Below are positions 4,770 through 61,231 of a stretch of DNA of 64,000 nt, in pieces. This stretch comes from Candidatus Roizmanbacteria bacterium CG_4_9_14_0_2_um_filter_38_17 (lineage in GTDB: Bacteria > Patescibacteriota > Microgenomatia > GCA-00278855): NCBI GenBank assembly GCA_002788855.1, contig PFSB01000017.1:35739-99738 (forward strand). Reading direction: 5' to 3'. Positions within the stretch are counted from its first letter, which is position 1, and each line of letters begins with the position of its first letter. The notes below the pieces were generated by a model. It searched no databases. It had not been told where the DNA came from and saw nothing but the letters and a program-made list of their open reading frames with translations. Position numbers and translations under genes: made by a program.

Positions 4770-5435
4770 TTATTGGAGCTCCACATTAACAAAAGTAACT
4801 CCGTCATTCAATGGATGTGGTTCTACATCACAACCTTGAAATGGACTTACTTCTTGCATGTTTTGTGATCCTCCACGATCAGTTAACCCCATGGAGAAAG
4901 TAACATTTGCTCGATCATCACCATATCTCCAGCGATCCATCTGTAAACTAACTGCTGATGTTTGTGCATCTGGTTGACCGTCTGCTGTCCATTTTATAAG
5001 ACTAGCATGGCTTTTGAATGCATCTGGAAGCTCCACTCGTGCATATGAGCGGACTTGAGCTGTTCCCTCTGTGATCATTTGTGCAACTTGTTCGCTGTTT
5101 AAAGAGTATGTCTGGCCTGTTCCCACTACTTTGCCGTTTTTAACCTCGTCGTGTTCGTGCATAGTTAGGGAGAATGGATAAGGGGTTAATGTTTCAGCTG
5201 CTTCTGCTGCTGGTGTAGCTGTTTCTACAGCTGCTGGTGTGTTCCCATTTGGATTAATCCAAGAAGCTTGCAATGTAGCCATGGCTTCTGGTTCGTTAGC
5301 CATGATAGTTGCAATTGGTGATGCGTTATCTTGATTACTGACTATCTTAAGTGCAGCTTCCTGAACTGAAGGAGCACATCCGCCAGTTAGTCCAGCTGCC
5401 AAAGTTAGTCTTAATGCTGTTTCTCTTAAATTCAT
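4770..5435 (-). CDS. Putative secreted lipoprotein of unknown function
   Basis: The N-terminus has a signal peptide with a lipobox-like LTGGC. There is an Ala/Thr/Pro-rich linker and no recognisable catalytic motif. Confidence 0.4.
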   Translation of the reverse strand: MNLRETALRLTLAAGLTGGCAPSVQEAALKIVSNQDNASPIATIMANEPEAMATLQASWINPNGNTPAAVETATPAAEAAETLTPYPFSLTMHEHDEVKNGKVVGTGQTYSLNSEQVAQMITEGTAQVRSYARVELPDAFKSHASLIKWTADGQPDAQTSAVSLQMDRWRYGDDRANVTFSMGLTDRGGSQNMQEVSPFQGCDVEPHPLNDGVTFVNVELQ

Positions 5436-5479
5436 ATTTATTAAACTCGAGAGGTTATTATAACTGGATATTTTATCTT

Positions 5480-5585
5480 TGTCAAGACTATGGGTTTGTA
5501 GTTACTAGCTTAAGGCAAGACCTTTCATTTTATGCAAGGTCTTGCCTTGTCTCGTAAGCGAGCTACTAACTCTAGCTTGACACAT
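5480..5585. repeat. Roughly 105-bp MITE-like element, copy A, with terminal inverted repeats TGTCAAGAC...CTTGACACA and an internal 11-bp-stem hairpin
   Basis: This is a near-identical direct repeat of 6145-6249. Its internal hairpin is AAGGCAAGACC-loop-GGTCTTGCCTT at 5512-5548. Confidence 0.7.
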
Positions 5586-5649
5586 GTAATGTAATATCCT
5601 ATAGGTTAAGGCTATAAGGGTTTTGAATCGCATATGTTATAATTAATTT

Positions 5650-5919
5650 ATGAAAACATCTGTTTTATCATTTCGGACTGTGATTGAGAAAGATGGCACT
5701 TCGTACCATGGGCATGTTCCTTCCTTGCCAGGATGCCACACTCAAGGAGAGTCAATTGAACAAACCCGCAAATACCTTAGAGAAGCAATAGCTGGTTATC
5801 TTAAAACACTTAAAAAACAAGGGTTGATAATTCCCACAGACGAAAGCTATGAATCTGTTGAGTCCTTTGACATGCGTAGCCTTTTTGAAAATCACCCCTC
5901 TTCTCAATCGTATGTCTAA
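5650..5919 (+). CDS. hicB: HicB-like antitoxin (UPF0150 family)
   Basis: The translation has the small HicB pattern (VIEKDGTSYHGHVPSLPGCHTQGESIEQ). It is paralogous to the ORF at 15247-15516 and overlaps the downstream hicA-like gene. Confidence 0.6.
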   Translation: MKTSVLSFRTVIEKDGTSYHGHVPSLPGCHTQGESIEQTRKYLREAIAGYLKTLKKQGLIIPTDESYESVESFDMRSLFENHPSSQSYV

Positions 5920-6130
5920 TATTCCTGTTATAACTGCTCGAAAACTGATTAAACTTTTAAGAAAAAATGGCTTTGTTCATTCTAGAACAGAAGGTAGTCA
6001 CCAGATATTTTTCCATCCAGGAAACAAGCGCATTGTTTCAGTTCCCGTTCATGCTGGAAAAGACCTTGGACGTGGAATCACCCGAGCGATTTTAAAAGAC
6101 GCTGATATCTTACCTGAAAGCTCTCTCTAA
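5912..6130 (+). CDS. hicA: HicA-like mRNA-interferase toxin (YcfA family)
   Basis: The true start MSNIPVITARKLIKLLRKNGF is internal to the tracked ORF 5849-6130. The GSH motif is typical of HicA. It is paralogous to 15516-15740. Confidence 0.6.
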   Translation: MSNIPVITARKLIKLLRKNGFVHSRTEGSHQIFFHPGNKRIVSVPVHAGKDLGRGITRAILKDADILPESSL

Positions 6131-6144
6131 AATAAACTGTTTAT

Positions 6145-6249
6145 TGTCAAGACTATGGGTTTGTAGTTACTAGCTTAAGGCAAGACCTTTCATTTCATGC
6201 AAGGTCTTGCCTTGTCTCGTAAGCGAGCTACTAACTCTAACTTGACACA
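6145..6249. repeat. Roughly 105-bp MITE-like element, copy B
   Basis: This is the same element as 5480-5585 with about 3 mismatches. It flanks the other side of the hicBA pair; the hairpin is at 6177-6213. Confidence 0.7.
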
Positions 6250-6278
6250 TTCATAAAGGCAACCTATAATACACGACT

Positions 6279-6944
6279 ATGAGCAATACTCTTACAAAGA
6301 AACTCTTTACTATTACTGCGTTGGCAATTATTCTAGGGAGTGTGTTTGGTTTTTCTGAAAGCAATGTGGATGGGAAGTCGGCCAGTGCTTTTATAGATAA
6401 GAAGATCAATAAATCTGGGACTAGTGATTATTATGATAATCTAACCGGATCAGATGCGTTTAAACCAGGAGAGGTAATCACCTACAAGATTTTTGTTCGT
6501 AACACCGGAGATGTAGATATTGTAAATATTCGCGTTAAGGATATATTTTCAAAATATGTTAACTATCACTCTGCTCCATCAGGAGGAGACTATAAAGATG
6601 GCGTGTGGGAAATAAATATAGGAACTCTTGCGCCTGGCGACACCAAAACATTAATGGTTCGTGGGTTAGTTGTGGGTAATCAAGACTTACCTAGTGATCA
6701 AAGCTTAATTTGTGATCTTAAAAATCGTGCGGAGATGCATGGTGATGTTTCTGGAGGTTTACTTGTAGCTGATGAGGCAGAGTTCTGTATTGAGCATGGA
6801 GTGATTACAACTACTGCGGTTACCACTTATGGTAAGGGTGGACCAGTTGCAGACTACTTACCTGAAGCAGGAGCTGGCAGTGTGATATTGATCACTTCAC
6901 TTCTATCTGGAGCAGGTCTGGCTTTCCGCAAGTTTGCTAAATAA
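6279..6944 (+). CDS. Sortase-anchored cell-surface protein (LPxTG-like LPEAG sorting signal)
   Basis: It has an N-terminal signal peptide. The C-terminus has YLPEAGAGS followed by a hydrophobic stretch and a positively charged tail (FRKFAK), and there is a conserved-repeat-like beta domain. Confidence 0.5.
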   Translation: MSNTLTKKLFTITALAIILGSVFGFSESNVDGKSASAFIDKKINKSGTSDYYDNLTGSDAFKPGEVITYKIFVRNTGDVDIVNIRVKDIFSKYVNYHSAPSGGDYKDGVWEINIGTLAPGDTKTLMVRGLVVGNQDLPSDQSLICDLKNRAEMHGDVSGGLLVADEAEFCIEHGVITTTAVTTYGKGGPVADYLPEAGAGSVILITSLLSGAGLAFRKFAK

Positions 6945-15246: not shown

Positions 15247-15516
15247 ATGGTTAAAGTACAGAATTTTAAAGTCGTTATTGAGCAAGACGAGAATGGCTAT
15301 TTTGTAGCTGATGTGCCCTCTATTCCTGGTTGCCATAGTCAAGGTGAATCTTATAAGGAAGCTATTGACAACGTTAGAGAAGCTATTGAACTATGTCTCG
15401 AAGTTGCTGAGGAAAATACGGACTATAAGTCAAAAATTGAGTTTGAAGAAGATACTACACCAAGCCGCTTTCTAGGAATAGCCCATGTTCCAGTTAGATT
15501 CCAGTTTTCTAAATAA
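15247..15516 (+). CDS. hicB: HicB-like antitoxin, second copy
   Basis: It is paralogous to 5650-5919 (VIEQDENGYFVADVPSIPGCHSQGES). Confidence 0.6.
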   Translation: MVKVQNFKVVIEQDENGYFVADVPSIPGCHSQGESYKEAIDNVREAIELCLEVAEENTDYKSKIEFEEDTTPSRFLGIAHVPVRFQFSK

Positions 15517-15740
15517 TGCCAAAGCTTTCCCCAGTTAAATCCAGAAAACTAATTAAATATTTGCAAAAACTAGGTTTTGAAGAAATAAGACAAAAGGGTA
15601 GTCATAAGTTTTTTTCTCATACAGATGGAAGAACTACAGTTGTTCCATTTCATCCAGTAGCAGATATTAGACCAGGTTTGTTACGAAAAATTCTTCAAGA
15701 CAGGTTGGTCTCTCCCAAAACATATCTACGAACAAAATAA
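15516..15740 (+). CDS. hicA: HicA-like toxin, second copy
   Basis: The translation reads KLIKYLQKLGFEEIRQKGSHKFF. It is contiguous with the hicB-like gene (its start at 15516 is the last base of the hicB stop). Confidence 0.6.
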   Translation: MPKLSPVKSRKLIKYLQKLGFEEIRQKGSHKFFSHTDGRTTVVPFHPVADIRPGLLRKILQDRLVSPKTYLRTK

Positions 15741-17369: not shown

Positions 17370-17442
17370 TGCGGGGTAGTGTACGGTTGCACAGGAGGCT
17401 CATAATCTCCTAGACTAGGTTCGACCCCTAGCCCCGCAACCA
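17370..17442 (+). tRNA. tRNA with CAU anticodon (Met / fMet / Ile2 not distinguishable by eye); CCA encoded
   Basis: A manual fold gives acceptor stem tgcgggg/ccccgca, a D-arm, anticodon loop cuCAUaa, a TUC-loop ttcgacc, and a U1-A72 pair. An extended -10 box TGTATAAT lies at 17346-17353. Confidence 0.65.
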
Positions 17443-17525
17443 GATTTATTTAAAGCCATCCTTCAAGATGGTTTTTTTGTGGTAATAATTGCCCCGGGAG
17501 TTAGTTCACTGTAAAATGAAGCATA

Positions 17526-17598
17526 GGCCAGTGTAGCTCAGTTGGTAGAGCAAAGGAATCATAAACCTTCGGTCGCAGGTTCGAGTCCTGCCACTGGC
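17526..17598 (+). tRNA. tRNA with CAU anticodon (second copy; Met-type)
   Basis: The acceptor stem is gccagtg/cactggc, the D-arm is tagctcagttggtagagc, the anticodon loop is auCAUaa, and the T-arm is gcagg-ttcgagt-cctgc. Confidence 0.7.
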
Positions 17599-17599
17599 A

Positions 17600-18277
17600 C
17601 TATTTTCCAAAGTTTCTCTTTTGCTGGGAGTACCAATCTAGGGATTTGTTAAATTCTTCTACAGTAAAATCCGGCCAGAAAGTTGGAGTAAAGTAGAGTT
17701 CAGTATCTGCAATCTGCCAGGGTAAAAAGTCCGATAATCTTTGCTGCCCACCAGTTCTAATTAATAAGTCTGGATCGGGTTGTCCGGCTGTATCTAAATA
17801 CTGCCCAAACTCCTCCTCTGTAATCTCTTTGTGATCTTTGGGTAATTTATTAATGGCTCTAAGTATTTCATCTCTACCGCCATAAGACATTGCAAAGTTG
17901 ACAGTTATTTTAGTGTTGTTTTTGCTTTGTTCAACCCAACTATTGGTCATATCTTGGATATCTTTGGGAAATAAAGAGAGATTTCCCAGTACTTTAATAC
18001 GTATATTCTTGCGGTAGTACTTATTTACTTTCCTATTTAAACTTGTGCGAAACAAGTTTAATAAAAATTTAATTTCTTCTGGTTTTCTGTTCCAGTTTTT
18101 TATTGCAAGTGCCCAAAAGGTCAAATTCTGGATTCCTAGCTCTATAGAACGATCGATTATTGATTCAATTTTGCTCTCGCCAGTTAAATGTCCTTTAAAT
18201 TTTGGTAGCCTTTTTTCTTTTGCCCAGCGACGATTACCGTCCATGATTAAAGCTACGTGACTAGGTAAGTGTTCCAT
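17600..18277 (-). CDS. uppS: Undecaprenyl-diphosphate synthase (cis-isoprenyl transferase)
   Basis: It has HVALIMDGNRRWAK and DLLIRTGG...RLSDFLPWQ motifs. The likely start is MEHLPS; the tracked ORF extends upstream. Confidence 0.85.
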   Translation of the reverse strand: MEHLPSHVALIMDGNRRWAKEKRLPKFKGHLTGESKIESIIDRSIELGIQNLTFWALAIKNWNRKPEEIKFLLNLFRTSLNRKVNKYYRKNIRIKVLGNLSLFPKDIQDMTNSWVEQSKNNTKITVNFAMSYGGRDEILRAINKLPKDHKEITEEEFGQYLDTAGQPDPDLLIRTGGQQRLSDFLPWQIADTELYFTPTFWPDFTVEEFNKSLDWYSQQKRNFGK

Positions 18278-19717: not shown

Positions 19718-19789
19718 GCGCCTGTAGCTCAATGGCAGAGCACTGATCTTATAAGTCAGGGGTTCTTGGTTCGAATCCAAGCAGGCGCA
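19718..19789 (+). tRNA. tRNA with UAU anticodon (reads AUA; tRNA-Ile-UAU)
   Basis: A manual fold gives acceptor gcgcctg/caggcgc, D-stem gctc/gagc, anticodon stem ctgat/gtcag with loop cuUAUaa, and T-arm cttgg-ttcgaat-ccaag. Confidence 0.6.
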
Positions 19790-19792
19790 CCC

Positions 19793-24882: not shown

Positions 24883-24984
24883 ATTTTCTCCTGCTCGGGA
24901 TTATGCATAAGTGAGTTCCTGACTTTACAGTTGCGGCACAGTTGCTGACTTTCACAGCATTCCTCTTATTCTTAATGCAGTTTA

Positions 24985-25500
24985 TTAAATTTTACTATTC
25001 CAGATTCTCTCTTCTACTCCAGCTTCTTTATTAACTAAGCGGGCAAGGGCATAGAGATAGTCGGACAGACGGTTCATGTATTGTAACAGATTTTTTTGTA
25101 AAATATTAGCAGTAACAAGTCTCCGCTCAGCTCGACGGCAAATTGTTCTGGCAAAATCTAGCTGTGCAGATTTAACTGATCCACCTGGTATATAAAACTG
25201 AGTTTGCTGTGGTAGTTTTTTTTGAATCATATCTATTTCCTTTTCAATCTCACTTACTCTTTTTTCAAGCATCTTATTTCTAGCTTCTTGATACTTTTTC
25301 TCTCCAGCTAGTAGCGCACAAATATGCATTAAGTCTGATTGAATATTATTAAAGGCCTTGCCTTTAATAAAGCCGATTGCGCTGTTTAATTCATCAATCG
25401 TGCCGTAGGCTTCAACTAGTGGATCGTCTTTGGAGATTCTAGTTCCTATACGCAAGGAGGTTTCACCTTTATCCCCTGTCTTTGTGTAAAACTTCAGCAT
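24985..25500 (-). CDS. ATP:cob(I)alamin adenosyltransferase, PduO type
   Basis: It has TKTGDKGETSL and EAYGTIDELNSAIG, the PduO N-terminal domain signature. It overlaps the upstream RNR gene end. Confidence 0.75.
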   Translation of the reverse strand: MLKFYTKTGDKGETSLRIGTRISKDDPLVEAYGTIDELNSAIGFIKGKAFNNIQSDLMHICALLAGEKKYQEARNKMLEKRVSEIEKEIDMIQKKLPQQTQFYIPGGSVKSAQLDFARTICRRAERRLVTANILQKNLLQYMNRLSDYLYALARLVNKEAGVEERIWNSKI

Positions 25501-46683: not shown

Positions 46684-47115
46684 GGGGATGTGTTGATTTG
46701 ACAGGATGAGTACTTTAACAACTTGCAAGCCGAGCTGATTAACTCGCTAAACTTATCAAAAAATCTAATTGCAGAGGATAAAACCCTTGCAGCTTTGAAG
46801 TCCCGTTTGCGCGGGATGGAAGAGGCCTTAATGGCAAAGCGCTTCGCAGCTCGCGCTGCTTTTGCTTACGCTTAAAGGCTGTTTATAGGTCTTTCACTCG
46901 ATGAAGATTTATAGGCACAAACAAAGTCGAGGCGTCAGATAAAGAATCTAGCCTGATCTTTATCGGAGAAATAAGGCAATCCTTAATGATAAGGATAGGT
47001 AAACTATCTTCGATTTGTTAGTTTAATGTCATTAAGTATCAAACTAACTAAGCTTGTGAATGAAGTTGTTTTGCTCGCTTTCTGGACGAGGGGTCACCCC
47101 CCTCCATCTCCACCA
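46684..47115 (+). ncRNA. ssrA: tmRNA (ssrA), about 432 nt, standard (non-permuted) form
   Basis: The 5' end GGGGAUGUGUUGAUUUGACAGG matches the tmRNA 5' consensus. The 3' end has T-arm gaggg-gtcaccc-ccctc, acceptor catctcc, and ACCA. The acceptor pairing 5' ggggatg with 3' catctcc gives a G3:U wobble, the alanine identity pair. An in-frame Ala-rich tag ORF ends ...AARAAFAYA-stop at 46873-46875. The position directly after smpB is canonical. Confidence 0.6.
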
Positions 47116-52237: not shown

Positions 52238-53082
52238 TTGTTCATTAAACCAAGAAGTTGACGATTATTCTGATATAGTTTATGAAAGTTATTAGCAAAA
52301 TTTTCTACAAATGAGCTATCGGTGAAAAATGGCAGAAGATCTTCTTTTAAGTAATTCGATTTTATGGCTTGAATGTTTTTATCGAGCAATGTTTGTATTT
52401 CTGCTGTTTTGCTAATTTTTGTAATATCCTTCAATCGCTTTAGATTAGGCTCTACTCTCTGTTCCATAAACCAGATAAGATCGTAATAGTCTCTTCCTTT
52501 AAAAGTAATTAAACCTCCTTTGTCTTTGCGAAATGTGCGTTGAAGTATAGCAGCAATTTTAGAAGAGCACATATCGGCTAAAGAATATCTGTTAATAATA
52601 AAATTAAAGTCTCCGATGTTCTTAATAGAAATTTCCTTCATATAATACTTACTATCCAGTGGGCCCAGATCAATTCGCACAAAAAGAACATTGCTGTCGC
52701 TAGGAGTAATATTTAAACCTACCCGGTCTAACATGGGAAACTTTAGGTACATCTGACTCTTATTCCCTGCTAACTTAAATTCAAAATCTTTCACTTGTAG
52801 ACTGCCAACAAAGTAGTTTGTTAAATCTCTCTCAAATCTAGAAATTGATAGATTATTAAAGTTTGCTACATCAAAATCCAGGTCTTCTGATAATCTGGGT
52901 AGTCCAAAACAGAAACGCAGAGCTGTTCCACCTTTAAAAATAAAGCTTTTACCATATCTAGAGCTGTAGACGTAGTTTAATACATATCCCTGCAATGCTT
53001 CTTTTAGCAGATTCCTTAAATATGGTGGACTAGCGCTTTTTTTGTTTAGCTGGACTATGCTGGAAAGTTTATTTATTAACAT
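52234..53082 (-). CDS. AbiEii/AbiGii-family nucleotidyltransferase toxin (type IV TA)
   Basis: It has GGTALRFCFGLPRLSEDLDFDV, the DUF1814 signature. Confidence 0.75.
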   Translation of the reverse strand: MLINKLSSIVQLNKKSASPPYLRNLLKEALQGYVLNYVYSSRYGKSFIFKGGTALRFCFGLPRLSEDLDFDVANFNNLSISRFERDLTNYFVGSLQVKDFEFKLAGNKSQMYLKFPMLDRVGLNITPSDSNVLFVRIDLGPLDSKYYMKEISIKNIGDFNFIINRYSLADMCSSKIAAILQRTFRKDKGGLITFKGRDYYDLIWFMEQRVEPNLKRLKDITKISKTAEIQTLLDKNIQAIKSNYLKEDLLPFFTDSSFVENFANNFHKLYQNNRQLLGLMNK

Positions 53083-53707
53083 ATTTTGCTATCCTCTCCA
53101 TCTTAGCAGAATTAGATAATTTCACGTAGCTCTTGAATTCTCTAATATCTTCATCCTGTAGCTGACTCCAGTTAATTCGTAAAGATGCTTTAATTTCTGT
53201 TTCTAGGTCTTTACCTAAGTTACGTTTTAGATATAAGAAATCAAATAGTGTTTTAGCTTTTGTGGCGATTGCTATAGTGTATGTATCTCCGCTTACTATT
53301 GAATATCCTGTAAATAATTTATTCTTAATACTCCGATAAGCAAAACTGCCTAGCTGGTTTTGAAACAGCCGGGTTGATTTATTTGTTATGCTTGTGATTT
53401 GGTAGGTTGCTTCAGGAATTAAATTATATTTACTAAGCATGTACTCAAGAGAAAGATAAGAAGGATAACGCAGGATATTTGCTACGTATTCTAGGTAGAG
53501 TTCTTTATTAGACACAGAACTATAATACGGATCAGTAACGTACATGCCCTTTTTTAGACTAATTAAATAACCTTTATTAGCAAGCTGCTCAATTTTTTTA
53601 TCAAGATTCTTACCATCCTTTCCAATAAGCATCCCCGCCGTTGACTTAGTGAAGTACGGTAGCAGCTCAAGCTGAGCCTGATCTTTTATTCCAGATATGC
53701 TAATCAT
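53069..53707 (-). CDS. AbiEi-like antitoxin / transcriptional regulator
   Basis: It lies immediately upstream of the AbiEii gene with a 14-nt overlap. The size and position are as in abiEi-abiEii pairs. Sequence assignment is weak. Confidence 0.45.
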   Translation of the reverse strand: MISISGIKDQAQLELLPYFTKSTAGMLIGKDGKNLDKKIEQLANKGYLISLKKGMYVTDPYYSSVSNKELYLEYVANILRYPSYLSLEYMLSKYNLIPEATYQITSITNKSTRLFQNQLGSFAYRSIKNKLFTGYSIVSGDTYTIAIATKAKTLFDFLYLKRNLGKDLETEIKASLRINWSQLQDEDIREFKSYVKLSNSAKMERIAKYVNK

Positions 53708-53795
53708 AGTGTAGTAATTATGGAATAGATGTTAGAGAAAGTCAAGCATTCGTGCTCAACTTGTTTCGCCTACGAATTTGCGCTACACTTGAACT

Positions 53796-54323
53796 ATGAG
53801 GAAAGCTTTTATATTTTTTGTTTTGTTGATTAGTCCGTGGCTTTTTCAGGTTTCTCTGGTGTATGCTCACGAAATAGCTCCTGCTCCGCATGTGTCCATT
53901 GCTATACCAACACCTGATGCGGCTCAAAGATGTGATATTTGTGGGTCTTGCTATAACCAAGCTACGCAAGTGAATGATGAACCTGGAGACTATGATCAAT
54001 GTGTTTTGTGTTTAACAAAAAATACTGCTGGCCATCCACCTGAGCATAAATGGACGCCGTTGGGTTGTTTGCCAACGTCTCCGGGGTTATTTACCCAGGT
54101 AATATTGCGTGTATTTGTCTCCATTGTGGGTGGCGTTGCTTTCTTAGCAATTCTCTATGGTGGAGGACTAATTCTCTTCTCGAATGGGATACCAGAAAGG
54201 GTTGAGACAGGACGCAGTATTCTTATATCTTCAGTAGCGGGGGTATTACTAGTGATCTTTGCGGTATTTATATTAGAGTTTATCGGCCTGGAGATCTTCG
54301 GGTTACCAGGATTTGGAGGATGA
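53796..54323 (+). CDS. Secreted Cys-rich protein with C-terminal two-helix VirB2/TrbC-like (T4SS-pilin-type) module, paralog 1
   Basis: It has a signal peptide and a Cys-rich segment (CDICGSC...CVLC). The motif WTPLGCLPT precedes two TM helices with GG and GR loop motifs, and the protein ends GLPGFGG. Confidence 0.5.
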   Translation: MRKAFIFFVLLISPWLFQVSLVYAHEIAPAPHVSIAIPTPDAAQRCDICGSCYNQATQVNDEPGDYDQCVLCLTKNTAGHPPEHKWTPLGCLPTSPGLFTQVILRVFVSIVGGVAFLAILYGGGLILFSNGIPERVETGRSILISSVAGVLLVIFAVFILEFIGLEIFGLPGFGG

Positions 54324-54378
54324 TGGCAAATATTGGCAAATATTGGCAATTGGTGTTATAATTTAGATTGGGTAAACC

Positions 54379-54660
54379 ATGAAACATATGAGAACAGTAA
54401 ATATTTCACTACCAGAAAATTTAGCTCAGCGAATTGAAGTTTTGTTAGCACAAAAAGAGTTTGTTTCTCGCTCAGAAGTGGTACGGACAGCGTTAAGAGT
54501 ATTTTTTACGCTGGAGCAAAGAGTGGATCCAGTTGAATTAGTTCCGTTTACAAAAAAACCACTAATAGATATTAAATCTGAACTTAAAGAAGCAGGTCAT
54601 GATTCTGTTTTTGTGGATAGTGTGATAAAGGGCTTAAAGGAATCGTCTGTATATAAGTAA
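54379..54660 (+). CDS. Ribbon-helix-helix (CopG/Arc-like) DNA-binding protein
   Basis: It has VNISLPENLAQRIEVLL...SRSEVVRTALRVFF, a beta-strand followed by two helices as in RHH folds. It starts with the MKHM repeat. Confidence 0.5.
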   Translation: MKHMRTVNISLPENLAQRIEVLLAQKEFVSRSEVVRTALRVFFTLEQRVDPVELVPFTKKPLIDIKSELKEAGHDSVFVDSVIKGLKESSVYK

Positions 54661-54858
54661 TCGTAATTCATGCAAATTCTGCCGCTTAAAGCTGTTGCCA
54701 AAACATCTTAATATCTACTCATTTCGTATTGATCGTAAATGGAGAGCTATTTTTATAGTGACAAGAGATAACAAAGCAGAGATTATTGATATTAATCTAC
54801 ATTATAGGTAAGATGGATTTAGAATTTGTTGGATTTATAGGATAAAGGAGTTAATTAT

Positions 54859-56175
54859 ATGAAGTTATCAAAAATGAGCTTATTTAAGAACCGTCCCTTA
54901 TTACTTAGTTTGGTTTTGCTGTGCATCTTGTATCTAGCTAGCCCAACAAAAGCATATGCTCAAAACATCTCAATTCAACCAGAAGAATTTAGGACAACTG
55001 TTGATGAGTTTGGCATTGATCTCACAAATCTAAATCCCGATGTCGAGTATAAATTAAATATCCAATGCTTAGGTACACAAGTTGACTACAAATATAGCTT
55101 TGTGCCCAAGAGTCTAGATAGGGCCTATTGGCTAGATGAGATCCCAACATCTATTAAATTATACATTTACAAGTCAGGGCAAGGAATGAATTGTACTTTT
55201 CAATCTAATAACTACGATTCCCAGGTTCACACTGTTACTCTTACATGGGGAAGTAATGGTAAAACTCAAAAAAATTACAAAGTTTTGCCAAGAGAGAATT
55301 ACTGCAATGTTGAATTTGATAACGACAATATCGATGTTAATTTCGATCTGAGCACCGCCGGCTTTCGTATTTATCCCGTAGATGGGTATATATTTACTGG
55401 AATTCACGGAGTTATACTTAGAGATAAAGATAATACAATTATATACAATGTTACCGGTATTATCGCGGATGATGATGGTAAAATAAAAGGACATTTGGAT
55501 GAATTTGGAGAATTCTCTAACCCTGGCACATATTCAGTTGAATTAATTAAAAATAGTAATCAATTATGCACTGGCTCATTTAATTTATATAGTTATTTAG
55601 AACCAACTCCAACACCAGATCCTCAATTCACAGCTGTCTGTAACCAAGGTTACGATGACTACTTGTCTAAGTCTGAAAATTCTGGCAAGACCGCAGCTGA
55701 ACTTCTTAGTGGCTTTTGTTCTCAGTCGCAATACTCTAGTTGCCATCAGTGTCCTCAGCCTACTCCAGGACAGCCAGGGATTAATCCAAGGGCAATTTGT
55801 GAGCAATTAGGAGATAGTAATGATCAGTCGTCGTGTTTTAAGTGTTTTGACCCAAAAAATTATGGTTCTGATGCAAATGAACGCTCTAAATCCCCTGGTT
55901 CCTGGACGGCGCTGGGGTGTATACCAACAGATACAGCGGGCTTTGTGAAGTGGTTATTGGGACCTTTCATGGGGATTGCGGGAGGAATTGCCTTTTTGTT
56001 GATCTTAAAGGGTGGATATCAGATCATGTTTTCACAAGGAAATCCGGAGTCAATTACGGATGGAAGAGATACGATAGTTGCCGCAGTCTCTGGACTTGTT
56101 GTGATAATCCTTTCAGTAGCAATTTTGGAGATAATTGGAGTGGAAATATTAAATATACCAGGATTTGGTAGATAA
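54859..56175 (+). CDS. Large secreted protein: N-terminal beta-rich domain, Cys-rich linker, and C-terminal VirB2/TrbC-like two-helix module, paralog 2
   Basis: It has a canonical RBS and a signal peptide (AYA|QN). The C-terminal 150 aa align with paralog 1 (WTALGCIPT...GGIAFLLILKGG...GR...PGFGR). Confidence 0.5.
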   Translation: MKLSKMSLFKNRPLLLSLVLLCILYLASPTKAYAQNISIQPEEFRTTVDEFGIDLTNLNPDVEYKLNIQCLGTQVDYKYSFVPKSLDRAYWLDEIPTSIKLYIYKSGQGMNCTFQSNNYDSQVHTVTLTWGSNGKTQKNYKVLPRENYCNVEFDNDNIDVNFDLSTAGFRIYPVDGYIFTGIHGVILRDKDNTIIYNVTGIIADDDGKIKGHLDEFGEFSNPGTYSVELIKNSNQLCTGSFNLYSYLEPTPTPDPQFTAVCNQGYDDYLSKSENSGKTAAELLSGFCSQSQYSSCHQCPQPTPGQPGINPRAICEQLGDSNDQSSCFKCFDPKNYGSDANERSKSPGSWTALGCIPTDTAGFVKWLLGPFMGIAGGIAFLLILKGGYQIMFSQGNPESITDGRDTIVAAVSGLVVIILSVAILEIIGVEILNIPGFGR

Positions 56176-56221
56176 TGATTATAACCGTTAATAAGTTGAC
56201 AAAAGATAACAGAAACGAGAC

Positions 56222-56327
56222 AAGGCGAGGCTTTTCACTTTAGTGGATAGCCTTGCCTTAAGCGAGTGATTGTCTTATCCGCTTAACTTAAAGGCAAGAC
56301 CTTCCATTTCATGTAGGGTCTTGCCTT
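56222..56327. repeat. Two tandem hairpins of the AAGGCAAGACC family downstream of pilin-like paralog 2 (third partial copy of the hicBA-flanking element core)
   Basis: At 56222-56259 the stem is aaggcgaggct/agccttgcctt. At 56291-56327 the stem is aaggcaagacc/ggtcttgcctt, followed by the same gtctcg tail as copies A and B. Confidence 0.6.
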
Positions 56328-56533
56328 GTCTCGCTTGTTGAATTGTGAACAGTTACTAATCTAGGGTTTGGCAGGTAGTTGATTGTGTATTATGATTACA
56401 TCATGAGAAATACTAAACAAAAACGCATGAAAGCAATAAAGATAAAAAAGCCGTTGAAACATGGCTTAAAGAAACAAGAGACGAGTGGCCGGATAGGTGG
56501 AAATCCAATGAAAGATATTGATATAATTTCATT

Positions 56534-56890
56534 ATGAATGATAAATTGGCATTAACATTACCGGGGGGGTTTGATGTAGATGTTCCTGTTCCTACGGTTG
56601 GGGCTGGGACTCCAACTCCGGATGGCTTGCTGCAGCAAGGTGGGATTAACATAGGGACAATTATTAACTCATTGCTGCCTTTGGTGTTTTGGTTTGCCGG
56701 AATTTTGTTATTTGTTTATCTTATTTATGGAGGGTACAAGATGCTTACCTCGATGGGAGATGAAGGAGCTATAGAAGAAGCAAAAGGCACGATTACCAAT
56801 GCAATTCTGGGGATAGCTATTGTATTTGTGGCATACTTTGTAGCCCAATGGATGGCGAGTGTTTTTGGAATCAACGACCTGTTTGGTTAA
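56534..56890 (+). CDS. Small VirB2/TrbC-like two-TM pilin-type protein, paralog 3
   Basis: It has a Gly/Pro/Thr-rich N-terminus followed by two TM helices. The loop (LIYGGYKMLTSMGDEGAIEEAKG) resembles those of paralogs 1 and 2. Confidence 0.4.
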   Translation: MNDKLALTLPGGFDVDVPVPTVGAGTPTPDGLLQQGGINIGTIINSLLPLVFWFAGILLFVYLIYGGYKMLTSMGDEGAIEEAKGTITNAILGIAIVFVAYFVAQWMASVFGINDLFG

Positions 56891-57864
56891 AAAAGGTGGT
56901 TTTGGGTTAAGCGTGCTCCCTTTGCTGGTTTGTTGATGATAACTCTTTTTACTTCAGGTAGTTGCTTGAGTTTGTTGACAAGTATTTTTGTATTCTTTTC
57001 CTGACAAATAATGTGAACATCCTGTCCGGTATTAATTGTGAAATAAGTTTCCAGTCCCTTGTTTCGCCAACTCTTAACCGCTTTCATTACGATAAGAGTT
57101 CCATTCTGCCAGTAAATCAGCGATGGCCAAGAGGTTAACATTATTGCGTGCAATTCTAATGCTTCCACCTCTAACAATTTTCCAAAAGCCGTAAAATCTT
57201 TTGTTTTAATATACTGGATGGCTTTTTTTATTTTATTATCTATATTTTTTAATCGTGTATCCATAAAGAGGCTTGAGCCTGAAATTGTTTGGCCCTCACT
57301 GGTAGAGATGTCTTTTTTACTGGAACTTACAAGTGCTACAACGTCAACAATGTTCCAGTGATTGGCATTAAAAATTGTTTTGGCAAAAGACGTTTCGCTC
57401 GTATCACCATTCATCCACTGAACAAAGCCATCCGGAATTGAGCGGCAGGCGGATCCAGATCCTTGGCGGGCAAGAATAGAGAGCTCCTTTTCACTTAGAT
57501 TAAGTCCTGCCGATTTTGCTGATGCAACTGTTAAGGCAGCAAATCCTGAGGCAGAAGACGAGAGACCTGTTGAGCTGGAAAAATTATTTATTGATATGAC
57601 TTTTGCATGTGTATTAATTTGAGCTAAAGTACGTACGCGGTCCAGCTGCGTAATTGCACGAGCAGATTCGTCTTTGATCGTTTTACCATTAATAATTATT
57701 TCGTCTTTGGTATATTTTTGTGAAAATTCAATCGTTGTTGTTGTGGTTAAATTGCTTAGATTCATAGCAATACTACCGTTTTCCGGTAGGCGTAAGTTTT
57801 CGTCCTTCCTTCCCCAATACTTAATAAAGGCGATGTTGGATGGGGCTATTGCTGTTGCTTTCAT
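56887..57864 (-). CDS. mvaD: Diphosphomevalonate decarboxylase
   Basis: It has APSNIAFIKYWGRKD, the MVD signature, and a GHMP C-terminal region. Confidence 0.8.
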   Translation of the reverse strand: MKATAIAPSNIAFIKYWGRKDENLRLPENGSIAMNLSNLTTTTTIEFSQKYTKDEIIINGKTIKDESARAITQLDRVRTLAQINTHAKVISINNFSSSTGLSSSASGFAALTVASAKSAGLNLSEKELSILARQGSGSACRSIPDGFVQWMNGDTSETSFAKTIFNANHWNIVDVVALVSSSKKDISTSEGQTISGSSLFMDTRLKNIDNKIKKAIQYIKTKDFTAFGKLLEVEALELHAIMLTSWPSLIYWQNGTLIVMKAVKSWRNKGLETYFTINTGQDVHIICQEKNTKILVNKLKQLPEVKRVIINKPAKGARLTQNHLF

Positions 57865-59758: not shown

Positions 59759-60054
59759 TTTATTTTAAATTTAATTCCATAAGGAATGATGCCTTCTTTG
59801 CTACTTTCTCTGACTTTGCGTAAAACGGCTTTTACTTTTACTCCGGATTTTAGCTTTAGAATATTACAGTCAACTAGCTGACCGGCCATTTTTACTCCAG
59901 ATTTAAGCTCTATTAATGCAACAATGTATGGAGCAAATTGCTTAAATCCGGTAGGTGGCGTGCGCACGATAGTCCAAGACAGCACTTGTCCTTCCTGTAA
60001 TAGGAGTTCTGGAATGTATTTTTGCCTGCGCCAGAGTTTTATTGGACTTATCAT
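59755..60054 (-). CDS. DUF35-family OB-fold protein (thiolase/HMGS scaffold-type), lacking the Zn-ribbon
   Basis: It has WTIVRTPPTGF...APYIVALIELKSGVKMAGQLVD, the DUF35 OB-fold pattern. There is no CxxC pair. Confidence 0.5.
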   Translation of the reverse strand: MISPIKLWRRQKYIPELLLQEGQVLSWTIVRTPPTGFKQFAPYIVALIELKSGVKMAGQLVDCNILKLKSGVKVKAVLRKVRESSKEGIIPYGIKFKIK

Positions 60055-60061
60055 ATTATTT

Positions 60062-60099
60062 AAGGCAAGGCCTTTAATTTTTATTAAAGGCCTTGCCTT
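60062..60099. repeat. Perfect 15-bp-stem hairpin (AAGGCAAGGCCTTTA / TAAAGGCCTTGCCTT), a member of the AAGGCAAG(A/G)CC palindrome family
   Basis: It sits in the 19-nt gap between the thiolase and DUF35 genes inside the mevalonate operon. Confidence 0.6.
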
Positions 60100-61231
60100 T
60101 ATTAGTTAAGATGTGAATTACTGCAGTTCCTCCTGATCCTCCAATATTGTGAGTTAATCCTAATTTAGCCTCTCCTTTGACCTGCCTTTTACCGGCCGAG
60201 CCCCTAAGTTGCTCAACTATTTCCACAACCTGCTTTACGCCAGTTGCTCCAACTGGGTGGCCAGCGGCTTTTAATCCTCCCGATGTGTTTACTATTAGCC
60301 CCTTACTTCCTAGCTTAAATTGTCCTTTTTCCAGCCTTGGACCCGCTTCTCCTTTTTTAACAAATCCAATATCTTCAAGAGCTAATATTTCAGCTATCGT
60401 GAAGCAGTCGTGAAGCTCGGCAACGTTTATTTCTTGTGGATCAATATTTGCACTGGCAAATGCTTTTTGAGAAGCAAGTTTTGTTGCTTTGATTTCAGTA
60501 ATAGACTCTCTTCCTGCTAACCCGGTGCTATCTGTGGCAACTTGTGAAGCAAGGATTTTTACTTGTTGATTTTTTGCTGTAAGAATTACAGCACTCGCTC
60601 CATCTGTGATCGGCGAGCAATCGTATAGTTTAAGTGGGTCGGCAATACATGTGCTGTTTAGCACATCTTGTTTAGTTAGTGTAAATGGATATTGGGCTTT
60701 GCAGTTTAAGCTGGCGTGAAAGTGATTTTTAACTGCAACTAGCGCAAGTTGGCTTTCTGTTGTGCCATACTTTTGCATATGCGCTCTTGCCATTAACGCA
60801 TAAAGAGCTGGAAATGTTAATCCAGCAATACGCTCGTCTTCACTAGCTGCCTGCATTAAGCCCGCGGCGACTTCTTCGGGTGCATAGTCAGTCATTTTTT
60901 CGATACCTAAAGCTAGTACGGTTTGATATGAACCGCTTTTTACCGCCTGACAAGCTTGGTGTACGGCAATACCACCGGAAGCACAGGCTGCTTCAACTTT
61001 AATCGCTGGAATGTTTAAACCAAGTTCTCCAGAGATGGCGGCTCCTAGCTGTTCTTGATCACCAAAATTACCAGAAAGCATGTTTCCAACATAAATAGCA
61101 TCGAGGTTCTTTATTTCAAGGTTAGCGTCCTCAAGTGCGCCATAAATAGCTTCTTTCATTAAAGAAGCAAATCCCTGACTCCAGAGTTCTCCAAATTTTG
61201 TTGTATATACTCCTGCAATGCCTATTGTCAT
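60074..61231 (-). CDS. Archaeal-type acetoacetyl-CoA thiolase (SCP-x / thiolase-like)
   Basis: It has the thiolase fold with an active-site Cys region (VEAACASGG) and C-terminal GHP and GG motifs. Confidence 0.7.
   Translation of the reverse strand: MTIGIAGVYTTKFGELWSQGFASLMKEAIYGALEDANLEIKNLDAIYVGNMLSGNFGDQEQLGAAISGELGLNIPAIKVEAACASGGIAVHQACQAVKSGSYQTVLALGIEKMTDYAPEEVAAGLMQAASEDERIAGLTFPALYALMARAHMQKYGTTESQLALVAVKNHFHASLNCKAQYPFTLTKQDVLNSTCIADPLKLYDCSPITDGASAVILTAKNQQVKILASQVATDSTGLAGRESITEIKATKLASQKAFASANIDPQEINVAELHDCFTIAEILALEDIGFVKKGEAGPRLEKGQFKLGSKGLIVNTSGGLKAAGHPVGATGVKQVVEIVEQLRGSAGKRQVKGEAKLGLTHNIGGSGGTAVIHILTNKGKAFNKN

Follow-up and report, generated by a model that had tools for sequence, protein, structure and literature searches.

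Integron cassettes, with their attC sites, and Xer-dependent dif modules are small promoter-proximal units, often toxin-antitoxin pairs, which have imperfect palindromes as sites, vary in number and carry no recombinase of their own. The Correia elements of Neisseria occur as many dispersed copies with TA duplications. We describe here a locus of Candidatus Roizmanbacteria bacterium CG_4_9_14_0_2_um_filter_38_17 (Microgenomates, Patescibacteria; contig PFSB01000017.1) in which a hicBA toxin-antitoxin pair lies between two direct repeats of 107 nt. Positions are those of the window, that is the whole stretch of 64,000 nt (64 kb) that was analysed, and labels from L013 to L151 designate sequences examined alongside it (n=151 loci). 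A reading of this DNA made from the sequence only had taken the repeats for miniature inverted-repeat transposable elements (MITEs) bounded by terminal inverted repeats. Instead, we suggest, with a probability of roughly 70%, that the two repeats are the genome's own divergent-promoter core, which has been duplicated around hicBA, and that a 665-bp unit made of hicBA and one repeat is gained and lost by homologous recombination.

Direct-repeat comparison placed copy 1 at 5479-5585 and copy 2 at 6144-6250, neither being assigned to a strand. The copies are identical at 105 of 107 positions (98.1%), with two mismatches, at position 53 (T in copy 1, C in copy 2) and at position 97 (G and A, respectively), and from start to start they are 665 nt apart. 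This corrects slightly the sequence-only reading, which had rightly recognised direct repeats of about 97% identity at 5480-5585 and 6145-6249. The window has no other direct repeat that is at least 35 nt long. The repeat begins with TTGTCAAG... on the left and finishes with ...CTTGACACAT on the right, and its termini, TGTCAAG ... CTTGACA, are perfectly inverted over 7 nt. When folded as RNA, as had been proposed, each copy gives a long imperfect hairpin (-47.2 kcal/mol, z -6.3), and the DNA fold of each copy is also strong (-27.1 kcal/mol, z -7.7). The core stem of this hairpin has 17-nt arms with one mismatch, comprising 13 perfect pairs (AAGGCAAGACCTT/AAGGTCTTGCCTT) and 3 more, so that the hairpin described earlier does exist, with a stem slightly longer than the perfect 11 bp claimed for it.

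Between the copies there are 558 bp of DNA (5586-6143, plus strand) holding the hicB upstream region, hicB and hicA, and together with one 107-bp copy they make up the 665-bp variable unit. The gene hicB (5650-5919, plus strand) encodes an antitoxin of 89 aa in which only the N-terminal HicB-like domain is recognised (Pfam HicB_lk_antitox, 3e-08), and hicA (5912-6130, plus strand), whose first 8 nt overlap the end of hicB, encodes a toxin of 72 aa (Pfam HicA_toxin, 4e-21). With a HicA toxin domain and a HicB antitoxin domain encoded by adjacent overlapping genes, the pair is predicted to be a type II HicAB system. Both genes are contained between the copies, which bracket them as exactly as had been noted. 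An extended -10 motif, TGTTATAAT, was read at 5635-5643 (plus strand) and is probably the promoter of hicBA itself; as it ends 6 nt before the hicB ATG, the hicB mRNA would be leaderless or nearly so. The second hicBA pair of the window, at 15247-15740, is only distantly paralogous, its proteins being 48% and 39% identical where they align, and no flanking repeats were seen around it, in agreement with the earlier description.

The outer ends of the two copies coincide with promoter sequences. A promoter scan and our own scan of the whole window found only two perfect (12/12) TTGACA-17-TATAAT sites in the 64 kb, and these are the two that border the locus. The leftward one (5457-5485, minus strand) has the left terminus of copy 1 as its -35 hexamer and lies upstream of the gene at 4770-5435, which starts at 5435; the rightward one (6242-6270, plus strand) has the right terminus of copy 2 as its -35 hexamer and lies upstream of a DUF11 gene that starts at 6279. 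In both cases the -10 hexamer is outside the 107-nt repeat, and the four 11/12 matches of the window are each also placed just upstream of a start codon. Since the outer hexamers of the repeat are the -35 boxes of a predicted divergent promoter pair, the supposed terminal inverted repeats (tgtcaagac...cttgacaca) coincide with two back-to-back -35 hexamers; what stands of them is a perfect inversion of 7 nt. From the consensus match and the placement we infer that both outer promoters are active. The -10 hexamer of the DUF11 gene is separated by 8 nt from the ATG at 6279, which would make its mRNA nearly leaderless, and no relative departs from CCTATAAT or from this spacing. Copy 1 also holds a rightward TTGACA with a weak TATAGG 17 nt farther on, and hicB lies downstream of it. 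CCTATA occurs in the 20 bases that follow copy 1 on its right, at the offset that it has in the true -10 region, so the founding duplication may have extended to the -10 hexamer. As the promoter core is duplicated around hicBA, both neighbouring genes would retain a complete consensus promoter.

The contigs that carry homologues of the DUF11 protein (91, 87, 81, 78 and 69% identity) were then compared with the window. None of three lineages that are farther removed (L142/L143, L144 and L145) has hicBA, and their DUF11 proteins are 69-81% identical to that of the window. In L142 and L144 the called start of a minus-strand gene is directly divergent from the DUF11 gene with no hicBA between them, and L143 and L145, which are shorter, comprise the intergenic segment and the DUF11 gene only. 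All four hold one orthologous segment that aligns with the 107-bp repeat and keeps both promoters, and copy 1, from -35 hexamer to -35 hexamer, aligns with the single segments of L142, L144 and L145. The invariant parts are TGTCAAGACTATGGG on the left, TTGACA on the right and CCTATAAT at 8 nt before the ATG, and the leftward promoter is kept as TTGACA-17-TATAAT or TACAAT, being the same as that of the window in L142, L144 and L145. The middle of the segment is variable: L142/L143 have a hairpin with a different but pairing stem, L145 has a degenerate hairpin, and L144 has none, its segment being 53 nt long. Because relatives without hicBA hold one orthologous copy beside the same genes, the 107-bp segment is native intergenic DNA and not an insertion. 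The sites lacking hicBA, which under the MITE reading should be empty of the element, still carry one such segment upstream of the DUF11 gene, and the alignment indicates that the inserted DNA is hicBA plus a second copy of the 107-bp segment.

The block delimited by the two copies has a recent history of its own. In the relative L129 the genes that flank it are 85.1% and 80.3% identical to those of the window and genes farther upstream about 82-84%, whereas the block corresponding to 5479-6250 is 97-100% identical (98.1% for copy 1, 97.4% for hicB, 99.1% for hicA and 99.1% for copy 2). Two sets of non-coding positions in the block agree fully (64/64 before hicB and another 13/13), and mismatches restart 1-2 nt at most from the outer end of each copy. 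In L141 the block is 96.7% identical, against 86% for the flank. Identity that extends to non-coding and synonymous positions is not what purifying selection would produce. The block therefore seems to have passed recently between lineages whose divergence is otherwise about 17%.

The number of 665-bp units (hicBA with one copy) is 0, 1 or apparently 2 in tandem among the relatives. Contig L132, with flanks 99.9-100% identical to the window, has the order element-hicBA-element-hicBA-element and thus three 107-nt copies. Its middle copy has C at position 53, the copy-2 allele, and G at position 97, the copy-1 allele, as would be predicted for the single-nucleotide hybrid that arises from an unequal crossover of copy 2 with copy 1 somewhere between positions 53 and 97, or from re-integration of a 665-bp circle. 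The earlier suggestion that hicBA is mobilised or bracketed as a cassette was partly right, in that the unit varies in number (0, 1 or 2) and the block has its own recent history; the MITE mechanism implied by it is not supported.

The toxin gene is damaged in several of these sequences. L129 has a 1-nt deletion in an A-run (near 5697), L141 a 106-nt internal deletion (516/517) and L148 (near 5294) another internal deletion of roughly 50 nt, whose junction was read by eye, while hicB is intact in the three of them. It looks like hicA is decaying independently in three contigs from two lineages. In the L141/L148 lineage, moreover, an IS30-like element is inserted in copy 1 (L148:3817-4917, L141:1-117); it encodes a protein of 344 aa with an HTH_38 domain, and its inverted ends, read by eye, are GATTCTAA..GAAGTGCACCA. 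The DNA to the left of this element carries Pyr_redox and ABC transporter genes and is unlike the left flank of the window, which suggests a rearrangement.

These observations can be brought together as follows. The promoter core between the back-to-back -35 hexamers of the genes at 4770-5435 (minus strand) and 6279-6944 (plus strand) would be present twice, with the 558-bp hicBA segment in between, and recombination between the 107-bp copies would add or remove the 665-bp unit. This could proceed by unequal crossover or, alternatively, through a 665-bp circle that is excised and integrates again by a Campbell-type event. Such homology would also let the unit move between related Roizmanbacteria lineages at this single locus, and exchange through it would explain why the limits of the high-identity block coincide exactly with the outer ends of the copies. 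The central hairpin would be a separate and older feature of the segment. Recombination limited to the 107-bp homology accounts for the fixed locus, the clean single copy that is left after loss, the tandem arrays and the sharp ends of the block; the anatomy, the orthology of the single segments, the numbers of units, the identity step and the hybrid copy were observed, while the circular intermediate and the origin of the first duplication are hypothetical.

Some points weigh against this explanation. Homologous recombination alone does not explain the founding duplication of native promoter DNA around a foreign hicBA, and no donor context was found: relatives of HicB are very few (57-69% identity), the two distant ones (L146 and L147) have no flanking repeats, and viral contigs yielded neither the 107-bp element nor a HicB relative. 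The copies of L129 do not show a hybrid pattern with a diverged resident segment, as would be expected after a simple single crossover, unless gene conversion followed. Since L132 was assembled from a metagenome, its two-unit path could in theory reflect several strains mixed together, which is conceivable because C53/G97 is also the allele pair of L129. The activity of the promoters is a prediction from their sequence. Finally, the absence of more full-length copies covers the 64 kb and the public contigs reached, the metagenome scan having given only this locus and the one at 56291.

The hairpin in the middle of each copy (5512-5548 in copy 1 and 6177-6213 in copy 2, without strand) is composed of two inverted AAGG-CAAGA-CCTT units and, unlike the arms around it, belongs to a dispersed family. 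A core-pattern search and a profile search of the window located five copies at four intergenic loci. The third partial copy that the sequence-only reading had placed at 56291-56327 was confirmed at 56291-56333 (43 nt, 91-93% identical), and two additional ones were found, at 56206-56271, which is the inverted partner of the former, and at 60052-60110. According to folding and the profile search, the two core hairpins within 56206-56342 are in inverted orientation and form a REPIN-like doublet; they are about 25 nt apart, have an outer pairing CGAGACAAGG/CCTTGTCTCG and lie downstream of a gene that ends at 56175. The hairpin at 60052-60110 has a perfect stem of 17 bp and lies between two minus-strand genes, and a listed open reading frame (60074-61231) terminates within it. 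The arms AAGGCAAGRCC/GGYCTTGCCTT are found at 5512, 6177, 56291 and 60062, with a diverged inverted form at 56215-56263. The core motif was counted 10 times against 2.1 expected, and for the 37-nt core pattern shuffles gave 0 occurrences expected by chance. Structural conservation, which was to be looked for on comparing the copies, was seen as compensatory changes in 6 of the 15 stem pairs (five window copies and two relatives). A weak nhmmer match at 25340-25370 was dropped because it falls inside a coding region. A metagenome scan with the core plus GTCTCG gave two stretches only, namely L129, a relative's version of this locus, and L130, corresponding to 52513-57412 of the window.

The core was also searched for with one genome per species, and the following figures refer to the matches listed. 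Many of these were terminator-like chance matches in unrelated phyla, and a large share came from Patescibacteria, often as extended perfect palindromes. In four of the scanned loci a Y1_Tnp gene (IS200-like, HUH) of about 220 aa is directly beside the hairpin; in three of them (L013, L051 and L100) the hairpin is on both sides, and in the truncated locus L039 the motif is on one side of the RayT-like gene. Three further loci (L149, L150 and L151) were chosen by protein similarity alone, and 3/3 show AGGCAAGRCC or GGYCTTGCCT on either side of the gene, no more than about 55 nt away on its upstream side and, downstream, at the stop codon or immediately after it. The bracketed RayT-like Y1_Tnp genes, for which no strand is given, are thus L013:3205-4068, L051:1798-2543, L100:4507-5395, L149:9944-10673, L150:9962-10683 and L151:9962-10689. 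In L150 and L151 the motif is a small hairpin, e.g. CGTTAGG-TCTTG-CCTAACG. Each arm of the window hairpin (AAGG-CAAGA-CCTT) equals one such small unit, and the window hairpin is therefore an inverted doublet with the architecture of a REPIN.

The RayT-like protein family comprises 7139 homologues at E 1e-10 or better, most of which come from Nomurabacteria and Paceibacterota; identity among the best-listed matches is about 60-65%, and some members are named "REP element-mobilizing transposase RayT" by one source. Motif-bracketed genes of this kind occur across Nomurabacteria, Yonathbacteria and Paceibacterota, and the motif was also found in Saccharibacteria contigs and in this Roizmanbacteria genome. 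The central hairpin of the window is probably a REP/REPIN, and it looks as if a REPIN-RAYT system is common to much of Patescibacteria; the literature searched held no description of REP/RAYT systems in the candidate phyla radiation/Patescibacteria.

This relationship raises the question of whether the hairpin itself moves hicBA. A RayT-like single-stranded DNA transposase could cut at one and the same position beside the REPIN hairpin in both copies and move the 665-nt unit as a single-stranded circle, the hairpin being attC-like. Such an HUH-enzyme cassette would yield the same products as homologous recombination, namely sharp boundaries and tandem arrays, its core hairpin consists of the motif found on the flanks of patescibacterial RayT-like genes, and the hairpin-gene-hairpin spacing at those genes (about 680-790 nt) is near the 665 nt found here. 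We nevertheless think it unlikely, given that tblastn found no RayT gene in the window or in any Roizmanbacteria locus examined and that the duplication reaches beyond the hairpin to cover the whole 107 bp with its native arms. Moreover, the crossover interval of L132 (53-97) is equally consistent with plain homology, and in the hairpin-bracketed intervals of other Patescibacteria loci no other cassette-like gene was recognised, RayT itself being the only clearly bracketed one. The related proposal that the REPIN-like hairpin is a recombination site for a RayT-like HUH enzyme acting in trans, with the 665-nt hicBA unit as a minimal single-stranded cassette free of an integrase, seems to us quite doubtful; if true, Patescibacteria with their reduced genomes would possess a REPIN-based cassette system similar to integrons. 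A different enzymatic origin can be imagined for the duplication, in which the inverted CTTGACA sites are nicked on opposite strands, leaving 107-nt overhangs to which foreign hicBA is joined before fill-in repair. It would explain why the duplicated segment ends 1-3 nt outside two inverted hexamers, which is otherwise a coincidence. As no such enzyme or precedent was identified here this is speculation, and the limits of homology alone can account for the identity ending at the ends of the copies, so we hold this long target duplication to be very improbable.

Hardly better are the chances of the transposon proposed by the sequence-only reading, in which a non-autonomous element of 105-107 bp, bounded by terminal inverted repeats, inserted on each side of hicBA in separate events or mobilised hicBA as a composite. 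The 7-nt perfect inverted termini, the long hairpin fold and the separate, recent history of the block between the copies all agree with it. However, those termini coincide with the -35 hexamers of a native divergent promoter pair with 12/12 matches, relatives free of hicBA keep one orthologous copy in place, and the arms of the 107-nt segment outside the hairpin were not found beyond this locus in the window and the 151 loci examined, nor in viral contigs. No further full-length copy was present in the window, in the metagenome scan or in viral contigs. The target-site duplication that such an insertion should leave was found neither at copy 1 nor at copy 2 nor around the composite, the flanks TTATCT/GTAATG (copy 1) and TGTTTA/TCATAA (copy 2) sharing nothing. 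Of four marks that define a MITE, three, namely a target-site duplication, dispersed whole copies and empty sites in relatives, are missing from the 107-bp repeat in the DNA examined, and for the fourth, terminal inverted repeats of its own, there are only the 7-nt inverted ends that coincide with the two -35 hexamers. The least probable of all these readings is that the copies are two ordinary transcription terminators or a duplicated small RNA gene, as had been offered as an alternative. A strong hairpin does stand directly after the hicA stop codon in copy 2. Nevertheless the stem is followed by GTCTCGTAAGC and not by a T-run, a terminator scan calls neither copy, and copy 1 sits between two gene starts, where there is nothing to terminate. 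Rfam gave no match at gathering scores, and a permissive search of 5400-6320 returned only a match at chance level (E = 0.066). In addition, L144 keeps the segment without the hairpin.

Duplication of the native promoter core followed by homologous recombination is thus the explanation that we favour, and under it the hicBA locus would be a case of a selfish toxin-antitoxin pair that has settled in a strong two-way promoter with neither neighbour disabled. The pair could then be gained, lost, amplified and passed between diverged strains through the homology that the duplicated promoter core supplies. The locus also calls for caution in scans made from sequence only, as back-to-back -35 hexamers mimic terminal inverted repeats. 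The REPIN-like family and its RayT-like partner, which are apparently common across Patescibacteria, with genomes of about 1 Mb, may matter more than the hicBA locus itself.

The two genes with consensus promoters both encode, according to the open reading frame list, proteins of 221 aa. The left one (4770-5435, minus strand) has no Pfam match, and the start of its product, read by eye, resembles a lipoprotein signal (LTGGC). The right one (6279-6944, plus strand) is a DUF11/CLIPPER domain protein by Pfam and has, also by eye, a C-terminal LPEAG motif followed by a hydrophobic tail. Both look like cell-surface proteins. In some strains the left gene (L132:2698-3786) encodes 362 aa instead of 221 aa and contains an internal tandem duplication with a spacing of 423 nt and a 112-nt repeat that is 97% identical, and this longer form is on at least three long contigs. 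Elsewhere in the window, ARAGORN identified a tRNA-Ile gene with anticodon TAT (19718-19791) that adjoins a tRNA-Ala gene (GGC), and there are two tRNA-Met genes at 17370-17600. An AdoCbl-II (cobalamin) riboswitch (24904-24979, minus strand) and a transfer-messenger RNA gene (46684-47115, plus strand) were detected at Rfam gathering scores.

Among the systems that have been described, amplification by unequal crossover and Campbell-type integration and excision are the nearest known processes, sharing with this locus the tandem units of fixed length, the hybrid junction copy and the loss that leaves a single repeat. They differ in that the repeat is here a promoter core and the cargo a toxin-antitoxin pair, and in that the unit is apparently exchanged between diverged lineages. 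The hicBA unit resembles integron attC cassettes and dif modules in being small, promoter-proximal, bracketed by palindromes, variable in number and without its own recombinase, whereas its repeat is native promoter DNA. An identity with attC was rejected by eye, there being no properly arranged GTTRRRY/RYYYAAC (the nearest, GTTACTA ... TACTAAC, is in the wrong order and off consensus), and so was an identity with dif, as no dif-like motif was seen. With Correia elements and other MITEs that bear promoters the segment shares a size in the range of 100-150 bp, inverted ends, an RNA hairpin and promoter hexamers at its ends; unlike Correia elements, it is confined to a single locus, has no target duplication and is orthologous to native DNA of relatives. 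The IS200/IS605 elements and their non-autonomous derivatives (PATEs) also have a gene between two direct subterminal hairpins, as in the RayT-like genes of L013, L051 and L100, but at this locus the duplication runs well past the hairpins into the native promoter and no transposase is present. The central hairpin, for its part, is like the REP/REPIN sequences served by RAYT (TnpA_REP, Y1 HUH) in being a short intergenic palindrome, arranged as an inverted doublet, dispersed and with compensatory changes, and the same motif brackets Y1_Tnp genes in other Patescibacteria. It differs from that system in that no RayT was found in the Roizmanbacteria DNA examined, and membership of the family is limited to the core of about 40-50 nt, the 107-bp repeat and its arms standing outside it.

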